Source of the DNA: a bacterium
GTDB lineage: Bacteria; Patescibacteriota; Minisyncoccia; Phycocordibacterales; Zambryskibacteraceae
DNA length: 64,000 nucleotides
Direction of reading: 5' to 3'
NCBI GenBank assembly: GCA_030649135.1
Contig: JAUSGI010000002.1
Location: 1-64,000 of the forward strand
Part shown: positions 3,001 to 64,000 of the stretch, piece after piece
Position numbering within the stretch: the first letter of the stretch is position 1
How the letters are laid out: each line of letters starts with the position of its first letter
The notes under the pieces: model-generated
Databases searched by the model: none
The model's input: the letters and a program-made list of their open reading frames with translations, nothing else
What the model was told of the DNA's origin: nothing
Program-made: the position numbers and the translations under genes

Positions 3001-4229
3001 TTGGTAAAGAAATTGGTAGACGTGGCGTTAGAGGTCGTGCTATTGGTAGCGTCAAAGGAAGTGGCAGAGACCCGTGGCGCGCCAACAGAGCTGTTGAAGA
3101 ACGCGTGACCAGCCGCGTTCAGGGTCACGTTTTTAGCATCAATAATAAAGACTTCATCTGGATTTCCTAAAGTAATTTTCCCACCGGCTGAGAAACTGCC
3201 CAATACTCCGAGCGAACCGAACGAACCACTCATGGCTATAACGGCGCTACCGACTTCTAACCCGCCACGTATCGAGACATTTTTTTGTATATCTAGATTG
3301 CCTTTAACAACTAAATCACTTTGGGTAGTAACAATATCTTCAAAGTAAGCCCGACCGATAACTTTCAGGTCTCCGCCGACTTCGAGAGTTGAGAGCAGTT
3401 TGGTTGCTCCCCTTACCAAAAGAGTTTTTCCAACTTCCACATTGCCTTCTAACTTTACATTCTCTCTGGTCATGGAGCCATTGGCAGTCACAAACGCGAG
3501 AGTGAAGTCTGTTGAACTGGCACCCCCTATGAATTCGGCATTCAAATTTTTAACTAAAGTTTTTGAATCTACCACGATGGGCGCAATACCATCTTGAATG
3601 TAAGACCTCAATTGACCCTCGGTCTCGATATGTCCCATAATGGCAACATTGCCTTCGCTATCCAAAAGTAGAATCTCGTTTTGATGAGTACCGGGACGGA
3701 AACCTAAGACAGTATTCGCATCATTTATCGAATCCCTAACAAAGTTAAATGATTTGTCGAAGAATCCAAAAACAATCGGCACCGGTAATAGCGCAAGCAA
3801 GAGCAGAGAAGCGAGCGTCGCCGCGATAAGTAACCTGCTCGATAACACAACTTTAAACGGAGAAAAGCGGGAATGAAATTTTTTATCGATGACTCTCTCA
3901 AGTATCAGCCCGATATCAGGGATAACCGTATTGGAAGAAACTTTTTCAGTTTTATTTTCTACTGAGGATTGCTCTTCGTATTTATTGAAGTCGGTATGAG
4001 GTGACTGGGACGATTCAAGAGACCGGAAATTTCCGTTCTGAACTTGAGCCCGAATCATCTGCTTCTTCATGTAATCATCTAAAACAGGCTTGGTTGTATA
4101 CCAAGCATTTCCAATTTTTTTTGAAGTCAGTTTTTTCTTACGGGCAAGTAGACTCAAATATTCAGCACTGTAAGGAACATGGTGCGCCGCCTCAGACATT
4201 GAAAGCCAGTTTTCAGCTTCGTTTTTCAT
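1..4229 (-). CDS. Giant surface fibre/adhesin-like protein, partial. The C-terminus lies beyond the window start. It has an N-terminal HTH_17-like segment and tail-fibre-like GNVGIGTTSP repeat modules.
   Basis: A minus-strand ATG at 4229 opens a frame (coordinate mod 3 = 2) with no stop down to position 1. The ORF track omits it because its stop is outside the window. The N-terminus reads MKNEAENWLSMSEAAHHVPYSAEYLSLLARKKKLTSKKIGNAWYTTKPVLDDY, which matches the excisionase/MerR-type HTH pattern. The motif G-N-V-G-I-G-T-T (revcomp of gtgccgatgccgacgttgcc) is in frame at about 119, 403, 862, 1321, 1441, 1908, 2158 and 2718. Long Ser/Thr/Asn tracts separate the repeats. Confidence 0.7.
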   Translation of the reverse strand, partial: MKNEAENWLSMSEAAHHVPYSAEYLSLLARKKKLTSKKIGNAWYTTKPVLDDYMKKQMIRAQVQNGNFRSLESSQSPHTDFNKYEEQSSVENKTEKVSSNTVIPDIGLILERVIDKKFHSRFSPFKVVLSSRLLIAATLASLLLLALLPVPIVFGFFDKSFNFVRDSINDANTVLGFRPGTHQNEILLLDSEGNVAIMGHIETEGQLRSYIQDGIAPIVVDSKTLVKNLNAEFIGGASSTDFTLAFVTANGSMTRENVKLEGNVEVGKTLLVRGATKLLSTLEVGGDLKVIGRAYFEDIVTTQSDLVVKGNLDIQKNVSIRGGLEVGSAVIAMSGSFGSLGVLGSFSAGGKITLGNPDEVFIIDAKNVTLNAAGHAFFNSSVGAPRVSATSFDATNSTTSNATSTNFFTNTFTSLFSTITSLIADDITVGALTATNSTSTNSTTTNAIITNATTTNLAVSDNLFTSLTLGSVPFIGASGLLTQNNADFFWDDATSRLGIGTNTPESTFNIIQTTNGVNIFNARRITDVAPSGDFIEYTNAAGDEVLFRVDNSGNLLAGGIITTGSQTITSTSQPQFRVQYDASNEWTSSVGSTGTTTFAFNGTTPRAIFIPASDRTDTFQFQNAAGLAVLSIDTTNQRVGVSTTSPWAKFSIGTHNLSTTLPAFVIASSSDAVATTTQFIVTNGNVGIGTTSPSATLAINPASDTRSLYIEDQDGSPSVAVATIRRPNNNSSPAISNALLRLIDHSSNYPLSIEDHSGNSLLAVRGNGNVGIGTTSPYAKLSVVGGTSGTVIAADAITGFTGNLLDLKVASTTKFSINQAGDIFSSGSTTLQNFTFANATGTSATSTNLFSTNFEAINASTTNLLTQNILSYASSTFQNLTFLNSTSTNATTTNFFSTTASSTNLYSSLLTVGGTGLVVDSSRNVGIGTTTPWGLLSVNPNGISGPSFVVGSSTATNFIVTNVGNVGIGTTSPYARFALHAGALDTYNANLFLVSSSTAAFSTTTLFSIDALGLATIKNLLVTSSSTFQNATSTNLFSTTASSTNLYSALLNSGSATFANLLVKASSTLQNFTFNNATGTSATSTNLFSTTASSTDLYSTLLTVGGTGLVVDSSRNVGIGTAGPSFKLDVNGSIRSGSTVASHFYNATYSVPVSTAVTINLYDGVSILQAGYQYRIKLVTQITGTPTGAVYIVYRTAVGTWVARMVSANGTTSNHPLLQVSGTSVQIYHNHATLTYSIGVFVEGFNDGNTSGPSDATFFGLEGAMTNLSGNVGIGTTSPDTSLDVVKTGSGKTWATTAGTVALFDRSSTAGAAAYISVISGNTGLARLQLGDTDSEAQGLVQYNNSLSALSLWTSALQRMTIDSSGNVGIGTTTPWGKLSVTQTGTAGAPAFIVEDSASPDTSPFIIDQ

Positions 4230-4457
4230 GCCGATATACCGTATCGGTTACAAAATATCATTGTCTTTATTATATATTTTAGAAAGGGTGACTACTACCT
4301 ATTTTGTGATTTTCTGTGGATAGAAACCTAAAAAACTGACGCCTAAATTGTGATGCGTTTATCGAGCTGATGAATCTAAACCAATACTTAAACAACAAAA
4401 TAACTAAATAAACATACAAACATTAATACACCTTAATAATCTCTTGTGATAGAAAGT

Positions 4458-4976
4458 TTATAAACCTATATATTTAAAGCTCTTAAGTCTAAAAATACCG
4501 AAAGCTCTACCTTTTATGTGCCACCTATCTATAAATCCCAGTTCGCGTGAATCTATACTGACATCTCTATTATCTCCAAGTATAAAATACTCCTCCGGAT
4601 CAAGCTTAGATTGGGTTACACCTATAAGCAACTCAAGATCGTCTATAAGATAATCTTCCTCAAGGGTAATGCCTGGATCAAGACGATTAGTCCTTATCAC
4701 TACTTGGTCTTCCTCGATACTGAAACGCTCTCCCGGTAAAACAATTATTCTTTTAATAACTTTGAATGATTCCCCTCTAGGAATAGCGACCACAATATCC
4801 CCGCGTTTTGGGTCTTTGTATAAATAAGCAAGTTTATTTATAAAAACATAATCACCGGAGAGGATGGTGGGCGACATTGAATCTCCGTTAACAATAAACC
4901 CTTCCAATGCAAATAGACGAACCAGAAGTGCCAAAGCAAACGCCACCAGAAATACTGATAAAATTTTCGTTTTCAT
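4458..4976 (-). CDS. lepB: Signal peptidase I (S26 family)
   Basis: N-terminal TM segment; GDSMSPT Ser box; KRIIVLPGE and GDNRDVSIDSR motifs. Confidence 0.9.
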   Translation of the reverse strand: MKTKILSVFLVAFALALLVRLFALEGFIVNGDSMSPTILSGDYVFINKLAYLYKDPKRGDIVVAIPRGESFKVIKRIIVLPGERFSIEEDQVVIRTNRLDPGITLEEDYLIDDLELLIGVTQSKLDPEEYFILGDNRDVSIDSRELGFIDRWHIKGRAFGIFRLKSFKYIGL

Positions 4977-55220: not shown

Positions 55221-56246
55221 CTACCTCGTTAAGAATTGAGGCGCAATTTCATTAATAACCTTGCGGGCTAAGATTTTAGGAGTAAATTCTTGCTGGTATA
55301 GCTGGTAAGCATGTTCCGCAACTTGTTCAAGTTCTTTCGGGTGACCCCTTAACTCAACAATCTTACGAGCCAACTCACGATAACCCCCCGGTGGCACGGT
55401 AAAGCAGGTTTGGTTATCGGCGAGAAACTCCATCACACCTTTATTTTCTCCAGTAAGATACGGGAGTTTCATCGCCATGCTTTCAAAAACTTTATGTGGA
55501 ATCGTGGTGTGAACCCGCGGATGATTAGCTAATTGTCCAAGCGACAGGTGACATTCCGTCATTTTTTGTCGCAATTCATCTATGGGAAGTCTCGTAGTAA
55601 CAAGTTCGAGATTCTTGGGTTTAAGCTCATCTATCAATTTTTCAATTTCTTTTAACAGTAAACCACGACCAATAATTCGGATTTTAATATCTTCTTGCTC
55701 TAACTCTTTGGCCGCCCGAACGACAACTTCTGCCCCAGCTTCTGGCAGAAACATGCCACGGAAAACAACAGTAAATTGTTTTAATTTGGCAATGGCGGGG
55801 TCAAAGTAAAATTGTTTATCGTCCGTCCCAACGAAGTGGACCGAGATTTTGTCCGGATTAATTCGGAAAATTTTGACCACTAAATCTTTTTGAGACTGAC
55901 ACTCAAGAAATACCTTATCGGCCAAACTGAAAGCCAGGAAATCTATTAGCCAATATCGCACCAGATTCGCGCCCCGGGATATCACCATGCTGTCATAAAA
56001 AGTGGCCAGAGCATTGTATATAATTCTTTTTCTGGTAAAAAATCTAAGAAAGATAATTAAGATACTTGAGGCGTAGCCTATCATTACTAAATCACTCTCT
56101 GGTTCCAGATTACGAAAGTCTTTCAAAAGCTTGCAATATCCATTAAAGCCGAGCTCTTTGACTTCTACTCCATTTTCTTTTAAACCCATGACGGTAATCC
56201 GGTCTCGCGGATTATCGAGTTTGAAGCTCACGTAGCAGATTTTCAT
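55221..56246 (-). CDS. Glycosyltransferase (GT-B, GT4-like)
   Basis: C-terminal nucleotide-binding domain FRGMF... IIGRG... KVFESMAMKLPYLTG. Confidence 0.65.
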   Translation of the reverse strand: MKICYVSFKLDNPRDRITVMGLKENGVEVKELGFNGYCKLLKDFRNLEPESDLVMIGYASSILIIFLRFFTRKRIIYNALATFYDSMVISRGANLVRYWLIDFLAFSLADKVFLECQSQKDLVVKIFRINPDKISVHFVGTDDKQFYFDPAIAKLKQFTVVFRGMFLPEAGAEVVVRAAKELEQEDIKIRIIGRGLLLKEIEKLIDELKPKNLELVTTRLPIDELRQKMTECHLSLGQLANHPRVHTTIPHKVFESMAMKLPYLTGENKGVMEFLADNQTCFTVPPGGYRELARKIVELRGHPKELEQVAEHAYQLYQQEFTPKILARKVINEIAPQFLTR

Positions 56247-57184
56247 AATTCTCGCGCCAACTTATCCATGAGTAGATTAAGGCTGTGGTCTTCTACCTTG
56301 AAGTTTTTTAGGTCCGGGTTCCTAACTTCGAGCTTCATCCCGCAAGCGGCAGCTTCAATTATTGTTTTATCCATACTTCCGGCAGGAGTGAAGTTGGCGT
56401 AAGTTTCGTGTGTTTGGTAAAGCTTGAGAGCCTCGACTTGATTTACCGGTCCGATGAATTTGATTTTATCGTTAAGATTTTGCTTTACACGTTCTCCATA
56501 TTCCTTATCATCCGGCAAAATAGGCCCGGCAATAGTTGCAGTATATTCGGTACCCCCGACCCAATCAATGAACTCTAAAACCTTCTTTACCGGAGAAATG
56601 CGGCCTAGGAAAAGAACGGAATTAGGTATTCTCTTTACACTTGGGTCAGGTTTGAAAAAATCAGTATCTATACCAGCGGGCATCAATTTAGTCTTTTTGA
56701 ATCTGGCAGTATAAGAACTCGGCGAAGTGCAGAAAACTTTATCTGAAAGTAATACGGCCATACGAGTCCATAAATTCCCCTTCGCATGATTCCTCCACAA
56801 ACATACTTTCTTGCCCATTAGCCACCACGATTTCCAACCGAGGATGACATACTCTTGATTCATGTGCACAAACACAGAATTATAATTTCTCCTCTCCCGC
56901 CAAATATATTCATAAAATCTGAAAATGTATTTGAATCTAGACCGACCACCCTCTTTGCCAAGAGATAGTACCTTAACATTTGCCGGTAAATGATAGCTCC
57001 CCCGTGAAATAATTTTTCCTCCAGAAAAATTATCGCCTTGCGATATTTCACGGGGTGAACCCCTCTCAAGACAGATTACTGTCACAAACTCAAATCGCTT
57101 AGCAAACTCCCGTACCCAGCGTACAAAGAAACCAAGCACAGGATTATTCTCGTCTAGTGATTGTGTAATTATTAGTAATTTCAT
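56243..57184 (-). CDS. Glycosyltransferase (GT-B, GT4-like)
   Basis: FLGRISPVKK... EAAACGMKL. Confidence 0.6.
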   Translation of the reverse strand: MKLLIITQSLDENNPVLGFFVRWVREFAKRFEFVTVICLERGSPREISQGDNFSGGKIISRGSYHLPANVKVLSLGKEGGRSRFKYIFRFYEYIWRERRNYNSVFVHMNQEYVILGWKSWWLMGKKVCLWRNHAKGNLWTRMAVLLSDKVFCTSPSSYTARFKKTKLMPAGIDTDFFKPDPSVKRIPNSVLFLGRISPVKKVLEFIDWVGGTEYTATIAGPILPDDKEYGERVKQNLNDKIKFIGPVNQVEALKLYQTHETYANFTPAGSMDKTIIEAAACGMKLEVRNPDLKNFKVEDHSLNLLMDKLAREL

Positions 57185-57529
57185 GTGGAGGGCCTTGTGA
57201 AATACGATTTGAGCCTGTTTTTTGTCGATTCTACAGCCCCCTTCAAGTGTTGCTCAAATCGTAATTCAATATCATTAGTATACCCGACATAAAAATTTCC
57301 ATCTTTTTGACTCTGTAGAACATAGACGTAGAATTTTTCATCAAATACAGACATGATATTGAATTATTTCACTGGGCAAGTCCAACGATGGAAAAAACCC
57401 AAAATAGGGTCACTTTTATCGACTTTCTGGGTGATCACCAGCAGTTTCATTGGATTTCCTCGCTCCTATTTTCTTATATGCGGAAGGTTAAACCTTGCGT
57501 ATTGGTCTTACTTCCATCATAATTCTAGT

Positions 57530-58195
57530 ATGACACGCCCAATTATATTATCAATCGGAGAATTTTATCACATTTATAATCGTGGCACTGAAAAAAGAAA
57601 GATTTTTTTATCCAAACATGACTACGAACGTTTTATAGCTCTTCTCTATCTTTGTAACTCCACTATCTCCGTCCGTATAGACATGCGACGCAAATCTTTA
57701 GATGAAACCCTCGATACTGACCGTGATAAGAATCTGGTAGATATTGGTAGCTACTGTTTAATGCCCAACCACTTTCATATTCTACTTAAAGAAAGAGTTG
57801 AAAATGGTATTAGCCTATTTATGCAAAAATTAACTACGGCTTATACTATGTATTTCAATAAAAAATACGAACGTAACGGATCTCTTTTCCAAGGAACTTT
57901 TAAGGCAGAGCATGCGGATAAAGACAGTTACTTGAAATATCTATTCGCATATATTCACTTAAATCCAGTCAAACTGATTGAACCCGAATGGAAGAAGGTG
58001 GGTATCAAAAACCGCACAAATGCTAAGCAGTTTCTGAGAAATTACCCTTATTCTAGTTATTTTGAATATACCGGAATCGACAGAAAATGGAAGACTATTC
58101 TAACGCCTAAGGCGTTTCCAGACTATTTTGATACTACCGATGGCTTTCAGAAAATGATTGATTACTGGCTTGAGTTTAGTTCTGAACAATCCTAG
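57530..58195 (+). mobile_element. IS200-like/REP-associated tyrosine transposase (Y1 HUH) gene, copy 1
   Basis: YHIYNRG, the HUH motif CLMPNHFHILLK, GSLFQGTFK and the catalytic-Tyr region YLFAYIHLNP. Flanked by AAGGTT-A/T-AACCTT palindromes (57485-57499; 58206-58220) and a 33-bp direct repeat (57408-57440; 58228-58260). The track's longer N-terminus (57353) reads as junk. Confidence 0.75.
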
Positions 58196-58266
58196 TGTAG
58201 TGCGTAAGGTTTAACCTTGTTCAAAAAGGTCATTTTTATCGACTTTCTGGGTAACTACCAATAATC

Positions 58267-59550
58267 TCATTGAGTTGGTGTGTCTGGGGTCTTTTCCGCA
58301 TTTTCAGTTTGCTCTTCTTTTTTCATAAGTTCAAATGCTTGGCCGAGATATCTCAATACATGGTGCCCGACAAGATAATGGAATAGGAGGCCAACCAGTC
58401 CGGCAAGAATGACGAGCAAGAGGAGATAAACGAGATTGTCTTTGATAAATTTGCTAATAAGCGATGACGACGAGACTGCCGCTGTGACATCTCTGATATT
58501 GCCGGCCTTATCGAAGACTCGCACCATAACGTTTAAGTCGCCGCGAGCGAGCGGTATCTGAAAAGGACTCTCCGTTTGGACAAAAACGGGGGAGACGGTA
58601 ACTGGTTGGCTTTTATCAATTATTCCGACCTCATAATAATCCACTCCCGACAGATTATCCGTAGTAAAGAAAGAGATTATCGACCGTTCGACCAAATTCA
58701 CCGCTGCCAACAAATAACTAACTTCCGGTTTGAAGTCTGCCGGCGGGACAGTGTCAATTCTTATCAGAAAATGCCCAGTCGTCCCCCAGACTCCATTTTT
58801 ATTGGCTTTAATATGAAAATACCATAAGCCATCGGCCAAACTTTCAAACGCTTCTGAAGTCTCGTTGGCAGTAATGGAGTTCTCTGGGATTGTGGATGGT
58901 TTATCATCCAAAATATAACTAAATCCCGAAACGCCGGCATCCCGATCCCATGAGATTACCGGACTGTCATTGTTGTACCACTCACCCTGGAACGGATGGG
59001 TCTCCGAGAAGACCTTCACCCCTTCCGGAGCCTTCGGCACAATCGCATATTCCGCCCTGCCCAACTCTACTTCGGCTTCCGTACCTTGGCCATCATTCAA
59101 GAGTACTTTTGAATTAGCGCCAAAAGAGACCGTTGCCCAGCCAGTCCTCTTGGCTTTAAAAGTGATTGTCCCCACTAAACCGGAGTTCGTAGTAATACCG
59201 TCCGGTATGACACCGACATAACTGGCCGTACCGCGAGTGTTATCGTAACTTGGCGGTTCCACCCAGACACCGATAATAGAGAGGCCGCTCGACGGTTTTA
59301 TGATTTCCAGCTTATCTTTGTCGAAGTTAACCCTGATTTCAATACCATTGATTTCGGCGCCGTCTGTATCGACTAGAATCGGGATATTGAAGGTTGAGTT
59401 CTCGACAAAGCTGGCGGCACGGGGAGAGAATGAAAGTTCGATTTTCGGAATTAATTGCGAGACATCCAGAGAGACTGTCTCGGCGTATGTATGAGACCAG
59501 ATGAGAGCCGTGAGAACAAACAGTAGAAGTATTCTTGAAATACGTGCCAT
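58267..59550 (-). CDS. Cohesin-domain surface protein with signal peptide and C-terminal TM anchor
   Basis: Signal peptide MARISRILLLFVLTALIWSHTYA. The N-terminal ~140-aa beta domain parallels the next gene (SVGDTFSV... LSF... LQV pattern). A second beta module resembles the 60489 gene. C-terminal TM helix LVYLLLLVILAGLVGLLF followed by a charged tail. Confidence 0.6.
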   Translation of the reverse strand: MARISRILLLFVLTALIWSHTYAETVSLDVSQLIPKIELSFSPRAASFVENSTFNIPILVDTDGAEINGIEIRVNFDKDKLEIIKPSSGLSIIGVWVEPPSYDNTRGTASYVGVIPDGITTNSGLVGTITFKAKRTGWATVSFGANSKVLLNDGQGTEAEVELGRAEYAIVPKAPEGVKVFSETHPFQGEWYNNDSPVISWDRDAGVSGFSYILDDKPSTIPENSITANETSEAFESLADGLWYFHIKANKNGVWGTTGHFLIRIDTVPPADFKPEVSYLLAAVNLVERSIISFFTTDNLSGVDYYEVGIIDKSQPVTVSPVFVQTESPFQIPLARGDLNVMVRVFDKAGNIRDVTAAVSSSSLISKFIKDNLVYLLLLVILAGLVGLLFHYLVGHHVLRYLGQAFELMKKEEQTENAEKTPDTPTQ

Positions 59551-59559
59551 TATTATTAT

Positions 59560-60537
59560 CTAATCCCCGAGATCCTTCTCAGCGTGGACAACTTCCTGAT
59601 GGATGATTTTTTCAGCATCTGCCAAGTTCTGCTTTAGGCGATGCGTGATTGTCTCTTCTTCCGCGGTTAGCTTCCGTTTATCGCGGGTCCGCTCCAAAAT
59701 ATGGAGGCTATCACCGACATCCTCTTTCAGAAGTTCAAAAGATTTTCCCGTCAATCGGTCTATATTATGCAGGTCTTTCCTCATATCCTTCCGCAATCTC
59801 GATACATTGCCCGCCCCCTTCGCGGCAGTATGAGTGAGAAGGAATATAAGCGCGACAATGAGAGCGAGCAGGAAGAATAACGCCAGAAGCCAGCTTATGG
59901 CAGTTTTAAGCGACGGGGTGCCAAATGGAAGAGTGTCCGCTTCTTCCTCCTTATCAAGCGTTCCAAGATCAATGGCGGGTGCTAAATTGTCTTCTCCATC
60001 TGTACCATTAGTCTCGAGCACTGCTGGCGGAGTGACGGGAAGTTGCTGCTTTTGCTCCAGCGCAAACGAGGCAGTGCCGAGGGTCTTAAGAATATTGGTG
60101 CCATAGCCATCGTTGGCAAGAAGTGAACCCGATGTCAAGCGAATGAGGGCGTTACCCGTACCGACTACCTTAAAATTGACACCCAAAACCCTGCCGTTAG
60201 ATTCGCTAAAGCCGGGGTTAGGCACCACGCCCTCGAAAGTCACCGTGCCGCGAGAGTTGGAAAATGACGGTTCCTGGATCCAGAGCGATAGCACCGACCC
60301 AATCTTCGATATGGAAGTCACCTGCAGACTGTCCGCCGGGAATGACAGCACGCCGGAAACGGCATTGATGGACTGCTGGGGACTTGAGACCATGATGCGC
60401 ACCGAGAACGTATCCCCGACGGAGTACGTCCCAGTTAAGGGAGAGAGAAAAATAGTATCGGCAAAAACGCTCTTCGGTGATACGAGGACTAAAAGAATCG
60501 TGAGCGTAAAGAGCGCCTTAAGAGTAAAAGAACGCAT
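59560..60537 (-). CDS. Cohesin-domain surface protein with signal peptide, TM anchor and cytoplasmic tail
   Basis: TIFLSPLTGTYSVGDTFSVRIMVSSPQQSINAVSGVLSFPADSLQVTSI is the cohesin-like signature seen in many small-genome bacteria; TM helix ISWLLALFFLLALIVALIFLL. Confidence 0.6.
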   Translation of the reverse strand: MRSFTLKALFTLTILLVLVSPKSVFADTIFLSPLTGTYSVGDTFSVRIMVSSPQQSINAVSGVLSFPADSLQVTSISKIGSVLSLWIQEPSFSNSRGTVTFEGVVPNPGFSESNGRVLGVNFKVVGTGNALIRLTSGSLLANDGYGTNILKTLGTASFALEQKQQLPVTPPAVLETNGTDGEDNLAPAIDLGTLDKEEEADTLPFGTPSLKTAISWLLALFFLLALIVALIFLLTHTAAKGAGNVSRLRKDMRKDLHNIDRLTGKSFELLKEDVGDSLHILERTRDKRKLTAEEETITHRLKQNLADAEKIIHQEVVHAEKDLGD

Positions 60538-61238
60538 AACAATATTATAATACTAATCAAAACACTTGCATAATGGTATGGACCAGCTGTGGATGCATCT
60601 CTATGATTACCTGCCTTATCCACCGCGCGAATGTGTATCTTCTGGAAAGTCTCTAGGTGCGATAAAACTAAGGGTGATTCTGTTTCTATCCAATTTTCAT
60701 CTCTAGGACTAAGAAACCAAGTGGAAGCCGCCTCGTAGCGCTCGACGCCCGTGCCCTTGTCTTGAGCGGTAAACGAAATGAAATGTCTGCCGCCAAAAAT
60801 ATCCGGCGATGTTGATATTATAGGCTCAAAAGGTTCCGGTGGTACCGTATCTTCGGCTATTTCCGTTTGTCGTAAAGAGAGCCTGACCGAAACGCTTTCT
60901 CCGGAACCGTCATTTTTATATGCTTTTATGTTGTTGAAAGAGAAGCCGGCAATATTTGAAGCGTCAAAAGCAAAAAGCCGATATTTCCCCCTAAATCCGC
61001 CCGGTGTTATACCGGCAAACGGGATGGTATTTCCAAGCAGCTCCGGCGAGGTAACCCAGATAAGAACGGCTGAATTGCCGGTATAGATATTTTCCACGCT
61101 TACATTTGTTGGCAAAACTAAAGTTCCCTCAATGGCATTGATTGTTTCTGTACCCGTATCAACTTCAATCACGGCAGTAACTGCTCCAGCAAAGAGTGGT
61201 AGAGAAAAGAGAATGATTATGATAAGAATTTTTCTCAT
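60489..61238 (-). CDS. Secreted membrane-anchored module protein related to the C-terminal half of 58267..59550
   Basis: Signal peptide; ISFTAQDKGTGVERYEAA, TESPLVLS and IRAVDKAGNHRD parallel ISFFTTDNLSGVDYYEVG, TESPFQIP and VRVFDKAGNIRD; C-terminal TM helix. Confidence 0.55.
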   Translation of the reverse strand: MRKILIIIILFSLPLFAGAVTAVIEVDTGTETINAIEGTLVLPTNVSVENIYTGNSAVLIWVTSPELLGNTIPFAGITPGGFRGKYRLFAFDASNIAGFSFNNIKAYKNDGSGESVSVRLSLRQTEIAEDTVPPEPFEPIISTSPDIFGGRHFISFTAQDKGTGVERYEAASTWFLSPRDENWIETESPLVLSHLETFQKIHIRAVDKAGNHRDASTAGPYHYASVLISIIILLCVLLLLRRSLRSRFF

Positions 61239-61239
61239 A

Positions 61240-62580
61240 CTAGCCAGTCCAATTAAACGCCATTATAGAGAAGTCTACGAGATTGACCTTGCCATCGCCA
61301 TTGATATCAGCACTCTTGGGCGGAGCTGGCCTATTATACCAATAGGCAACAATGGAAAAGTCCACGAGGTTGACACGGCAATCGGCGTTCGCATCTCCTC
61401 GTTTATCGCACTTTTGGGGAGTTTTGGCAAAAAGAATACTGATGTTGCCGACAACGAAAGGCACTGCCAGGCTGTACGGGCTTATCTCATTTGCTTTAGC
61501 AGCTTTCGACTTGGTGCTATGGTCGCCATACTCGAGTGGTGTAGTATCAAAGTTGTAGAGATATATCCCGTTCACATCTGCCGGAGTTTTGGCGAAGAAC
61601 TGCTGGTCGGAATTTATTTGTATTGTTACTTCGCTTTGGTGAGCTACCTGACCGAATATGGTAATGTCATCCCCTTTTCTCACTTGCGATTTATCCACAG
61701 CCACAGTCGGCGCTATGAATATGCCGGTAATATCGGTGGTCACTCCTGCGGTTACGCTCACCGGGAATGTCAATAAAGATGACCTATTACCTTGATTGTC
61801 CTCGCTATATATGGAAAAGAAATAATTGCCGGCAGTCAGATTGGTAAGTGATGCCTGGAAATTGGACGTGGCGTCAGCAATTGTTGTGGCAGACACTTGG
61901 GCATCTTTAAGGATAGTGATGGGTCTTCTCGGATATGCTCGGCCGGAGAAATTGACCCCGCCTGTAGCATAGGTCGTCACGCCTCCTCCACCACCACCAC
62001 CACCCCCACCACCTCCGCCTCCTCCGCCATCATCATCGTCGTCAACCGGTGCGGTGGGGGTAGCGGAAACCTCGGTAGAAGTGGCAATGGTATTATCCAG
62101 AGCATCCAAAACCCTGACAACGAAGTAATATGTGGTGCCGGCAGTAAGCCCCGTGCGCGTGGAAGCAAGTACGTCACCAACATCTGTATAAGTATATGCA
62201 CCGCCGGCAGTAGTGGACTGACCCACCGAATATCCTCCTACCGCCCAGCCAGTCGAGGCATCCGCGGTCGTCCAAGTGAGTGACACTTGCTCGGCACCGG
62301 CGGTGGCCGTCACGGCAGGAGTGGAAACAAACGGAAAATAAAGAAAGCCACCAAAAAGTTGATAGAGACTGTTGGTGGTTGAAGTGCCAATCGCCATTTG
62401 GGAAATGACTGCGTTTAGTCTGAAACTAGTGGAAGTAGAGTATCCGCCGGAAAATAACACGGGGTTAGAGACCGTATAAGTATCGGAAGAAAAATCCTGC
62501 GCATAGGCGGCGTTGACGGTGAGAAAAAATAGAAAACATAAACTTAGAAGCGTTAGAAATCGTACTTGTGGAAAAAACAT
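61240..62580 (-). CDS. Secreted dockerin-containing protein with FN3/Ig-like domains and an Asp5-Gly16 linker
   Basis: Signal peptide. The C-terminus carries two Ca-binding dockerin repeats, DANADCRVNLVDFSIVA and DINGDGKVNLVDFSIMA. An in-frame (GGN)16 tract at 61985-62040 encodes the flexible linker. Confidence 0.65.
   Translation of the reverse strand: MFFPQVRFLTLLSLCFLFFLTVNAAYAQDFSSDTYTVSNPVLFSGGYSTSTSFRLNAVISQMAIGTSTTNSLYQLFGGFLYFPFVSTPAVTATAGAEQVSLTWTTADASTGWAVGGYSVGQSTTAGGAYTYTDVGDVLASTRTGLTAGTTYYFVVRVLDALDNTIATSTEVSATPTAPVDDDDDGGGGGGGGGGGGGGGGVTTYATGGVNFSGRAYPRRPITILKDAQVSATTIADATSNFQASLTNLTAGNYFFSIYSEDNQGNRSSLLTFPVSVTAGVTTDITGIFIAPTVAVDKSQVRKGDDITIFGQVAHQSEVTIQINSDQQFFAKTPADVNGIYLYNFDTTPLEYGDHSTKSKAAKANEISPYSLAVPFVVGNISILFAKTPQKCDKRGDANADCRVNLVDFSIVAYWYNRPAPPKSADINGDGKVNLVDFSIMAFNWTG
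61985..62040 (-). repeat. In-frame trinucleotide (GGN)n/(GAY)n simple-sequence tract encoding D5G16
   Basis: cctccaccaccaccaccacccccaccacctccgcctcctccgccatcatcatcgtcgtc on the plus strand. Confidence 0.8.
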
Positions 62581-62691
62581 ACTAAGTAATTATACAACAT
62601 AGTAACTGTGCAGAATATATAGTACCGAGTACTGAAAGCCGAGAGCTTTAGACTCTCACTAATACTGTATACTTATAGATATCTCCCAAAC

Positions 62692-63360
62692 ATGAGAAAG
62701 GAACCTATCATAACAAACCATTATTATCACATTTATAATCGAGGAGTGGATAAGCGTGACATATTTAGCGATATAAAAGACCTTAAACGTTTTAAAGAAA
62801 GTGTAAAACAGTTCAATCAAGTCGATGGCATAGGTAGCCTGGAACTATATCGCAAATCCGTGAGAGCTTTAGGCTCTCACTTTGAATTGAAATCGAAACC
62901 GATTGTGGATATTGTCGCCTTCTGCATAAATCCTAATCATTTTCATTTTATCTTAAAACAACTGGAGGACGGCGGAATAGCAAAATTCATGCAGAAATTA
63001 CTCGGTGGATACACATATTACTTTAATCAGAGACATGCACGTTCTGGTTCATTATTTCAAGGAACATTCAAGTCTAAACTAATCAACCACGATGACTATT
63101 TTAGAAAAATATTTGCGTATGTAAACCAAAATTATTCTGTTCATAACATACCAAAAAATAAATCAATTTTTATTTTTGCAAGCAATACAGAATACGAGAG
63201 TGGGCATTTTGATTTTGTTTCTAAAATCGAAGGACAGGAAATGTTAAAAATTTTTGGTGGAAAAAATAATCTTAAAAAACACTGCGAAGAAATTATATCT
63301 ATTATTCGAAAAGAACGTGGCAAAACTTCTCTAGAAGAACCAGACGAACTGCCTATGTGA
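62692..63360 (+). mobile_element. IS200-like/REP-associated tyrosine transposase (Y1 HUH) gene, copy 2
   Basis: YHIYNRG, HUH motif INPNHFHFILK, GSLFQGTFK, FAYVNQNY. Flanked by hairpins GAGAGCTTTAGACTCTCAC (62640-62658) and GTGAGAGCCTAAAGCTCTCAC (63360-63380). The latter is the exact reverse complement of an internal copy at 62867-62887. Confidence 0.75.
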
Positions 63361-63394
63361 GTGAGAGCCTAAAGCTCTCACTAAACAAACGATC

Positions 63395-63925
63395 TTATAG
63401 GAAGAGCCAGGTTTTTATTATAGGAGAAAGCCAGGATTCTTGCTCACGAAGAGCGGTCACTTCATAGAGAAATCCCTTATGGACAAACCAGACTTCCCAA
63501 GTCTCACCGAGCTTAACACTCTTGCTATAGAAAGACGTGGCGAGCACGCCATCAAGATAAAAAGTGGAGGGATTCTGTTTGATGCCGGACGGCACGTCCA
63601 GCAAGAAACGCTTATCACTTATCTTTTCCTCGCCATAGGGAACCACAAAAATCTGGAAACCCATTTTTTCGTCTTTATTTTCAAAAATAAAAGTCTTTGC
63701 CCCATCACCCTCATCGAACTCTCTTGCAATTGTGCCTGCCGGATAGAGCAGGGAGAAAATGTATCGTTCGCTTCGATATTCGTGCCACCCATCGGGCACG
63801 TCTCGCACGGCACCCGCTGTCCTGTTCTCGTCGTCTCCACCACGCTTTTCCGGTAAATAAAAAAATGCTCCGACAATAAGCCCGAGGGTTATAACAATAC
63901 CGACCACAATGCTTGTGTATTTCAT
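63395..63925 (-). CDS. Hypothetical membrane-anchored protein
   Basis: N-terminal TM helix (YTSIVVGIVITLGLIVGAFFYL) followed by a ~150-aa soluble domain. No motif recognised. Confidence 0.45.
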   Translation of the reverse strand: MKYTSIVVGIVITLGLIVGAFFYLPEKRGGDDENRTAGAVRDVPDGWHEYRSERYIFSLLYPAGTIAREFDEGDGAKTFIFENKDEKMGFQIFVVPYGEEKISDKRFLLDVPSGIKQNPSTFYLDGVLATSFYSKSVKLGETWEVWFVHKGFLYEVTALREQESWLSPIIKTWLFL

Positions 63926-64000
63926 ACTTTTACACATATAATTATATCACCGCACACCTTGGCACGAAACGGTGATATACTTTAAGAGAGTGGGTGGGTG

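Follow-up and report, generated by a model that had tools for sequence, protein, structure and literature searches.

The 64,000-nucleotide stretch analyzed here (the window; positions 1 to 64,000 of contig JAUSGI010000002.1, assembly GCA_030649135.1, from a member of the Zambryskibacteraceae) contains four minus-strand genes for cohesin- and dockerin-type surface proteins (58267-62580). They are bracketed by two plus-strand genes for Y1/HUH tyrosine transposase-like proteins, tnp1 (57530-58195, 221 aa) and tnp2 (62692-63360, 222 aa, of a different subfamily). The first-pass annotation of this DNA had proposed either a composite mobile or rearranging unit or a hotspot driven by repetitive extragenic palindromic (REP) sequences and REP-associated tyrosine transposases (RAYTs). 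Our results favor a different reading, to which we assign a probability of about 80%: the four genes are a vertically inherited core operon, and two unrelated single-gene Y1 units were gained, one at each operon boundary, in separate events. The tnp1 and tnp2 units are two unrelated insertions rather than a mobile cassette, and both genes are ordinary members of a very large, little-studied clade of Patescibacteria.

The evidence that carries this reading comes from relatives of the window genome. Homologues of the 427-aa cohesin protein (coh427) were found by the hundreds, at 57 to 74% identity, in Zambryskibacteria, Wolfebacteria, Nomurabacteria, and other Paceibacteria. Scanning one genome per species yielded 179 stretches encoding such a protein, of which 80 were fetched with 10-kb flanks. 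The gene order dockerin, p249, p325, cohesin was colinear in 54 of these 80 species-level Paceibacteria genomes. A profile hidden Markov model (HMM) of the Y1 family detected four Y1 genes in the 1.156 Mb of operon loci, none of them bracketing the operon; a Y1 gene followed the cohesin gene within 1 kb at 1 locus of 72 (L079) and preceded the dockerin gene at none of 35. In close relatives, boundaries are empty. The cohesin gene overlaps or abuts the homologue of its neighbor p313, with no insert, in L003, L004, L005, L197, L199, and the P0133 contig, and all but the last of these document presence/absence polymorphism of the Y1 units at the site (L197 on its cohesin side). On the dockerin side, the homologue of the neighboring gene p180 abuts the dockerin gene in L004, and both junctions are empty in L199 and L004. 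The nearest relative, L197 (ENA ERZ27247831 k141_244049), shares the window's gene order from p180 as far as the glycosyltransferase cluster, with proteins that are 64 to 90% identical.

Both flanking proteins are Y1 transposase homologues at the positions first assigned to them. They matched Pfam Y1_Tnp (PF01797) with 41 bits (tnp1) and 35.3 bits (tnp2) at a gathering threshold of 23, and they are 42% identical to each other over 146 aa, close to the 40% originally estimated. No further Y1 gene was found in the window. In an alignment of 19 sequences that included both window proteins, H81 and H83 of the HUH motif and Y141-x3-N145 were invariant. An AlphaFold (AF2) model (predicted local distance difference test score, 86.5) combined the HUH fold with a helical C-terminal extension of about 70 aa. 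In a fold search of the PDB, the top match was 4er8, the Escherichia coli TnpA-REP protein bound to a REP hairpin (template modeling score, 0.66), followed by 2vic, 2a6m, 2f4f, and 2xma; IS608, IS200, and ISDra2 transposases make up these next matches. Sequence-profile searches of the PDB returned marginal matches only (E = 0.09 to 0.35, with 4er8 at E = 0.35), and the scores against the RAYT equivalog of NCBIfam, REP_Tyr_transpos (NF047646), were 41.8 and 31 bits, below its cut-off of 80. Judged by sequence, the family is remote from TnpA-REP, IS608, IS200, and ISDra2. The number of related clusters at 90% identity was at least 7,980 for tnp1 and at least 3,609 for tnp2, and members that carry an organism name come from Patescibacteria, where they are annotated "transposase" or "RayT." We found no description of this Y1 family in the literature on RAYT and IS200 elements in Patescibacteria or the candidate phyla radiation (CPR), the coverage of which was incomplete, making this weak evidence.

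Each Y1 unit of the window is about 740 bp long and consists of a cognate palindrome, a promoter of sigma70-like type with an almost leaderless start, the open reading frame (ORF), and a second cognate palindrome at the stop codon. Both units are AT-rich islands, with a G+C fraction of 0.33 to 0.36 (57250-58250 and 62500-63500) compared to 0.44 to 0.54 for the operon and 0.44 for the window. The upstream palindrome of tnp1 (57478-57502, plus strand; -6.4 kcal/mol, z = -4.0) has the core AAGGTTaAACCTT at 57484-57496, and its 3' flank supplies the -35-like hexamer TTGCGT (57495-57500) of a promoter in which 17 nt lead to CATAAT (57518-57523) and 6 nt more to the ATG. The downstream palindrome (58206-58218, plus strand), AAGGTTtAACCTT, has its center base flipped relative to the upstream copy and a short stem (-2.6 kcal/mol, z = -1.5). 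Within the window, AAGGTTWAACCTT occurs only at 57484 and 58206. The tnp2 unit holds three plus-strand palindromes: an upstream copy (62639-62659), CCGAGAGCTTTAGACTCTCAC, with an eroded outer stem whose intact equivalents are present in L185 and L191; an internal copy (62860-62880; ORF nt 169-189, encoding VRALGSH; -9.5 kcal/mol); and a downstream copy (63361-63381; -10.6 kcal/mol, z = -7.0) that begins at the base after the stop codon. The internal palindrome, which had been missed at first, is an exact 21-nt inverted copy of 63361-63381. The motif GAGAGC-loop-GCTCTC is confined in the window to these three places (62641-62657, with one mismatch, 62862-62878, and 63363-63379), giving six strand-matches against 0.17 expected.

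When single-stranded DNA was folded, the left tnp1 hairpin and the internal and downstream tnp2 hairpins were stable (z from -4 to -7); the right tnp1 hairpin was weak, and the upstream tnp2 copy did not fold as the cognate hairpin. In both units, the flanking cognate palindromes are inverted relative to each other, and the two types, AAGGTTnAACCTT-type and GTGAGAGYYTWRRRCTCTCAC-type, are unrelated. The claim of a distinct palindrome for each gene copy held up. The likeness of the hairpins to REPs is confined to shape and position, with no further copies in the window.

The same layout recurred across the family, which we sampled in 80 metagenome loci together with further loci retrieved through exact matches to known proteins. 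The median for the longest perfect stem was 10 bp within 80 nt upstream of the start and 9 bp around the stop, compared to 4 to 5 bp in controls (n = 75). A matching pair of palindromes with a common inner arm accompanied 44 of 75 genes, and their outer stems covaried; typically, an inner (A/T)AGG-N5-7-CCT(T/A) core is enclosed by an outer stem of variable, covarying sequence. The tnp1 core AAGGTTnAACCTT recurred in about 12 loci, including L084, L091, and L101, and in L084, whose protein is 68% identical to tnp1, the palindromes with this core have stems of 11 and 15 bp. From the end of the upstream palindrome to the ATG, the distance was 11 to 36 nt. A TATAAT-like -10 hexamer stood 6 to 8 nt before the ATG in 27 of 43 genes versus 5 of 43 controls, and we therefore place a promoter between palindrome and start. 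Given that position, the mRNA of the Y1 unit is probably leaderless.

Two candidate properties of the family were rejected. Antisense orientation relative to the neighbors, seen in both window units and in several of the first examples, was not a rule, since over 85 genes the neighbors lay on the same strand 86 times and on the opposite strand 45 times. Flanking direct repeats were not a general feature of the units either: at other loci, the best upstream/downstream matches were the palindromes themselves, and a long additional flanking repeat was seen only in L162, making the repeat around tnp1 (described below) locus-specific.

How mobile are these units? Five identical proteins were each found on 5 to 24 contigs with neighbors that were always the same (P0011 on 17, P0102 on 15, P0319 on the 24 examined out of 78 blocks, P0253 on 17, and P0244 on 5), and an identical second copy of a Y1 unit was found on none of the contigs. 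A second, divergent Y1 gene was present at 3 of 82 loci. The closest relatives of tnp1, P0003 and P0007, are 68% identical and share the synteny of their left flank (MurJ, a TPR protein, and a protein of about 205 aa), which points to long vertical persistence. We had also considered n202, a neighbor of P0003, as a p180 homologue marking the same junction; it is only 28% identical to p180, and the Y1 gene lies on its other side, and the junction is a different one. Units of the tnp2 type (78 to 79% protein identity) have one palindrome, GTGAGAG..CTCTCAC, and its three positions in common, and they occupy three unrelated contexts: that of the window, one in L185 between a 111-aa gene and dihydroorotate dehydrogenase, and one in L191 with PolA and a 164-aa gene on one side and a PEMT gene on the other. 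These comparisons show that the Y1 units relocate, but rarely and on longer timescales. Palindromes outside the units were scarce: we found no extra copy in the 64-kb window, which is the span covered by palindrome counting in this genome, none in the 20-kb loci L185 and L186, and three stray copies in 391 kb of flanks from 44 relatives. The Y1 units thus behave like RAYT-type residents and not like active insertion sequences, with one copy per variant at a site that stays fixed in the long term.

A fourth tnp2-type palindrome lies one gene upstream of the unit in L191 to L194 (2400-2420) and in L196 (911-931). The small ORF thereby enclosed between two palindromes, of 164 aa in L191 to L194 and called at 113 aa in L196, may be a passenger gene of the unit.

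By analogy with the structures of IS608 and TnpA-REP, a dimeric Y1 protein would bind its own palindromes extruded as hairpins on single-stranded DNA and would cut and rejoin the DNA by means of Tyr141 and an HUH-bound metal. Binding of the Y1 protein to the upstream palindrome, which adjoins or overlaps the -35 element, would also repress the gene.

The junction between the cohesin gene and p313, where tnp1 lies, has a more complicated history. In relatives, p313 comes directly after the cohesin gene, its start overlapping the cohesin stop (..CCAATGAAATTACTG..ACCCAGAAAGTTGATAAAAATGACCCTATTTTGGG..). In the window, p313 has three successive starts, of which two are relics and one is in working order, with the tnp1 unit and a truncated gene for a GIY-YIG nuclease lying between them. 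Relic A (58219-58270, minus strand) retains about the first 17 codons of p313, joined to the cohesin stop by an ATGA overlap, and is cut off by the tnp1 unit; it is 84% identical to the p313 start of L197 and 84 to 91% identical to the starts in relatives. Relic B (57364-57483, minus strand) is a dead junction of cohesin 3' end and p313 start in which p313 codons 1 to 24 are followed by a frameshift and a stop, and it is 93% identical to the L197 p313 start versus 59% to the window's own. The working p313 (56243-57184, minus strand) is an intact neighbor whose relatives weakly match a glycosyltransferase family. Codons 1 to 26 of this gene diverge to an unusual degree (the first 69 nt match L197 at 65% DNA identity), and the protein is native-like from codon 27. 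This mosaic breakpoint, at about codon 27, was seen only against the closer L197 and was not visible against L003, L004, or L005.

A 33-bp direct repeat had been reported around tnp1. It is real as a 25-nt match, GGTCAyTTTTATCGACTTTCTGGGT, at 57408 and 58228 (0 expected), the left copy falling in relic B and the right copy in relic A. It consists of two dead copies of the cohesin-end/p313-start junction and is not a target duplication made by a transposase, and by the same sequence comparison, the junction appears to have been duplicated or replaced at least twice. Y1 transposition makes no target duplication, and because of this we favor recombination over Y1 transposition as the source of the repeat. 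The tnp1 unit and the GIY-YIG gene would have entered by recombination with diverged DNA that duplicated or replaced the p313 start, possibly through a single crossover of a circular intermediate or through homology-facilitated illegitimate recombination with DNA of a diverged relative.

The GIY-YIG gene (57181-57354, minus strand; Pfam GIY-YIG, 39.7 bits) encodes 57 aa, compared to about 87 aa for the full-length gene in L004, L065, and L078. It resembles free-standing GIY-YIG homing endonuclease genes in being a small GIY-YIG gene between conserved genes that recurs at the same operon elsewhere, and it is associated with replacement of the end of the adjacent gene. It differs from them in its truncation (57 versus about 87 aa) and in having no DNA-binding domain. 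In L004 (4884-4994), L065 (7754-7873), and L078 (7346-7465), three species, the gene of about 87 aa comes immediately after the dockerin gene, within the operon. Insertion at this place is recurrent, and the place is not the one used in the window. Duplicated gene starts were looked for around these three insertions, and none were found.

Could the two Y1 genes nonetheless jointly move or invert the cohesin-dockerin cassette? Their same orientation and exact bracketing of the cassette would suit such a composite or rearranging unit, and composite transposons likewise have two same-orientation transposase genes around a block of genes. However, the flanks here are not copies of one insertion sequence (IS), differing in their ends as well as in most protein residues. 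Neither enzyme could use the end of the other, because the palindromes are non-cognate and the proteins only 42% identical, leaving tnp1 and tnp2 unable to cooperate. The hairpins are partly eroded, the enclosed block is a conserved chromosomal operon, and in L197 a third, different unit occupies the dockerin side, with nothing inserted on the other side. Because the operon is conserved in order and position without flanking elements in relatives, with one or both junctions empty in close relatives, an outcome that the first-pass annotation had itself set as a ground for rejection, the composite model is refuted, and we consider it scarcely credible here. This result removes the attractive but wrong idea of an adhesion module that travels as a transposon.

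A second reading takes tnp1 and tnp2 as two genuine REP/RAYT systems (REPtrons), that is, as domesticated enzymes that scatter their palindromes across the genome in the form of REPs or REPINs, with the cassette merely lying between them. The likeness to the E. coli TnpA-REP (RayT/YafM) REPtron is considerable: it extends to the Y1/HUH fold, for which 4er8 is the best structural match, to a single-copy gene that persists long at one site, and to flanking cognate palindromes, which in both window units lie in inverted orientation. One genome can have several distinct RAYTs or REPtrons, as is documented (PMC5581495; PMC8266576), and two divergent Y1 copies are therefore not unusual in themselves; the first-pass statement that RAYTs are normally single-copy is accordingly only half right. 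In contrast to TnpA-REP, however, the palindromes are not dispersed as REPs or bacterial interspersed mosaic elements (BIMEs), in the window or in the flanks of relatives. The sequence similarity is marginal, with RAYT equivalog scores far under the cut-off, and the window protein has the helical C-terminal extension. The hairpins of the family are perfect-stemmed, and a cognate palindrome lies inside the ORF. The features of groups 2/3, a bulged stem and a conserved GTAG 5' of the hairpin, were not noticed on visual inspection (of 45 centered hairpins for the GTAG, with no formal motif search). Taken together, these differences make two REPtrons an unlikely reading.

The units share with IS200/IS608-type TnpA elements a length of about 0.7 kb, the presence of just one small Y1 gene, subterminal hairpins, the lack of a transposase-made target duplication, presence/absence polymorphism between related genomes, and low activity, as in IS200. 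Unlike IS200/IS605 elements, they do not occur as multiple identical copies per genome in the data examined, and their end hairpins are often mutually inverted and not on one strand. Their ORF is also about 70 aa longer than that of IS200/IS608, and no tnpB partner accompanies it.

Alternatively, the repeated p313 starts and the flanking Y1 genes might have been created by chimeric joining of strains during metagenome assembly. The source is a metagenome-assembled contig, and the repeats are diverged copies of one junction, as such an artifact would have it. But the same arrangement is present in a Logan contig (37,440 bases) and in an NCBI metagenome-assembled genome record (longest listed contig, 70,293 bases), the repeats are too diverged (59 to 81% identical to each other) to mislead an assembler, and the reading frames of all intact genes are preserved. 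We give this explanation next to no weight.

Several observations weigh against the reading of a core operon with two unrelated gains, or at least limit it. At the same p180|dockerin junction where tnp2 lies, L197 has a different Y1 unit (4100-4960, 225 aa), also antisense. This unit is of a third type, 35% identical to tnp2 and 43% to tnp1, with the palindrome TTAGGACAT-CGG-ATGTCCTAA, and its downstream palindrome overlaps the stop codons of both convergent genes; the cohesin|p313 junction of L197 is intact. The p180|dockerin junction thus appears, from this comparison, to have been colonized at least twice by different units, which is modest evidence for a site preference or for a scarcity of places that tolerate insertions, and given the L197 unit, "unrelated chance insertions" may understate site preference. 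The tnp1 unit may have arrived by its own transposition or by passive recombination. Loop orientation between upstream and downstream palindromes is mixed across the family (24 inverted, 17 the same), which neither the IS200/IS605 nor the REPtron scheme predicts. With 64 kb searched in this genome, genome-wide dispersal of REPs is possible. Binding, cleavage, and autoregulation by the Y1 proteins of this clade are all inferred by analogy.

The L197 unit also bears on the idea that Y1 units and GIY-YIG genes settle preferentially at the edges of the operon, and above all in the p180|dockerin spacer, either through targeting or because compact genomes offer few insertion-tolerant sites. This idea is compatible with a core operon that gained two unrelated units. 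In addition to L197, it draws on the Y1 unit directly after the cohesin gene in L079, a distant species; on the window's cohesin|p313 junction, where a Y1 unit, the remnant of a GIY-YIG gene, and two relic gene starts are found together; and on the GIY-YIG genes right after the dockerin gene in L004, L065, and L078. Against it, boundary occupancy across the 80 species is only 1/72 and 0/35, the density of Y1 genes near the operon (4 per 1.16 Mb) is not raised, and no shared target motif turned up, although such a motif was not specifically sought. On this evidence, we rate a preference for these boundaries as possible, with a chance clearly short of even. The hotspot proposed in the first-pass annotation therefore survives to a limited degree (through L197, L079, and the nested insertions), whereas its being driven by REP/RAYT activity is not supported, as no dispersed REPs were found in the sequence covered.

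The internal palindrome of tnp2 proved to be a family feature. Within the Y1 ORF, at nt 157-172 (codons 53 to 57, a variable surface region), the cognate 13-nt core occurs a third time, perfectly matched in 13 of 70 genes and with at most two mismatches in 19 of 70; the best core match elsewhere in the ORFs had at least three mismatches. The internal copy covaries with the flanking copies, in that at least nine different core sequences each match their own flanks. It was found in L101, L104 to L106, L109, L110, L114, L130, L151, L161, L169, L170, L185, L191, and the window's tnp2, and it was not found in tnp1 or the closest relatives of tnp1. The literature searched contained no description of such an internal or three-site palindrome design.

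A subset of loci had a further feature. DnaA-box 9-mers, TT[AT]TCCACA, were enriched about 14-fold in the sequence bordering the palindromes on the outside (28 in 26 kb versus 46 in 618 kb), lying 12 to 74 nt outside the Y1 genes and often on both sides, at L104/L105, L106, L111, L116, L117, L124, L130, L134, L142, L154, L174, and others. None accompanied the tnp1 and tnp2 units of the window. A DnaA-type DNA-binding domain in the Y1 C terminus was considered as an explanation for these boxes, and Pfam gave no match to one.

These features allow a bolder proposal: the window genes might belong to a Patescibacteria-wide, single-copy Y1 class that is neither IS200-like nor REP/RAYT-like, with three covarying palindromes (at the -35 element, at ORF nt 157-172, and at the stop) with or without DnaA boxes, and that acts as a self-regulating or self-rearranging resident repeatedly settling at the same operon boundaries. 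We put this forward tentatively and consider it more doubtful than probable. A cognate palindrome embedded in the ORF at one fixed position is a property of about a quarter of the family members, and the family, annotated merely "transposase," is carried by thousands of Patescibacteria genomes. If the three-site design is regulatory or catalytic, it would represent a new mode of coexistence between an HUH enzyme and its DNA sites, as well as a testable handle on the role of "domesticated" Y1 transposases in reduced genomes.

The genes between the two units confirm the cohesin and dockerin calls made at first. All four are on the minus strand, and signal-peptide-like N termini and membrane helices are visible in the translations of the operon proteins. 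The dockerin gene (dock446, 61240-62580) encodes a secreted protein of 446 aa with fn3/Ig-like domains, a Gly/Asp linker, and a C-terminal dockerin that matched Pfam Dockerin_1 with 32 bits (threshold, 22.9). It is followed by p249 (60489-61238), with a signal peptide, a weak cohesin-like N terminus, an OmpL47-type domain, and a C-terminal membrane helix, and by p325 (59560-60537), with a signal peptide, a cohesin-like domain, a membrane helix, and a charged tail. The last gene, coh427 (58267-59550), a core gene of Paceibacteria, encodes a signal peptide, a cohesin domain (Pfam Cohesin, 27.3 bits; threshold, 24.1), an Ig-like/OmpL47-type domain, and a C-terminal membrane helix. The 325-aa protein had no match in the Pfam search; its residues 31 to 189 show homology (E = 8e-20) to the cohesin region of the 427-aa protein, and the second domain of the latter recurs in the 249-aa protein (E = 8e-9). 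Judging by these domains, the operon products, a secreted dockerin protein and three membrane-anchored cohesin-like proteins, presumably form a docked surface complex. Extra tandem cohesin paralogues are present in some species (L032, L041, and L048).

The operon shares with the cellulosome-type cohesin-dockerin pairs of Firmicutes the Pfam domains Cohesin and Dockerin_1 on adjacently encoded secreted and membrane-anchored proteins. Unlike those pairs, it has no carbohydrate-active enzyme domains, it combines one dockerin protein with three membrane-anchored cohesin-like proteins whose binding is predicted from their domains, and it is a core operon of small-genome Paceibacteria. No description of this operon was found in the literature on cohesin in Patescibacteria/CPR, which was incompletely covered and is weak evidence. 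As core equipment of Paceibacteria, the cohesin-dockerin operon should be useful for studies of episymbiont attachment.

Beyond tnp2 lies the neighboring gene p180 (63395-63937, minus strand), which directly precedes the dockerin gene in L004 and is separated from it by the different Y1 unit in L197. Rfam and tRNA scans of the window found nothing. Past the end of the window, at the equivalent of positions 64230 to 64272, the Logan contig L001 (16700-16743) terminates in a perfect palindrome, ATACCACGTTTAAACGTGGTAT, which follows a small ORF for a Thr/Pro-rich secreted protein and may be a further hairpin site or a mere assembly break.

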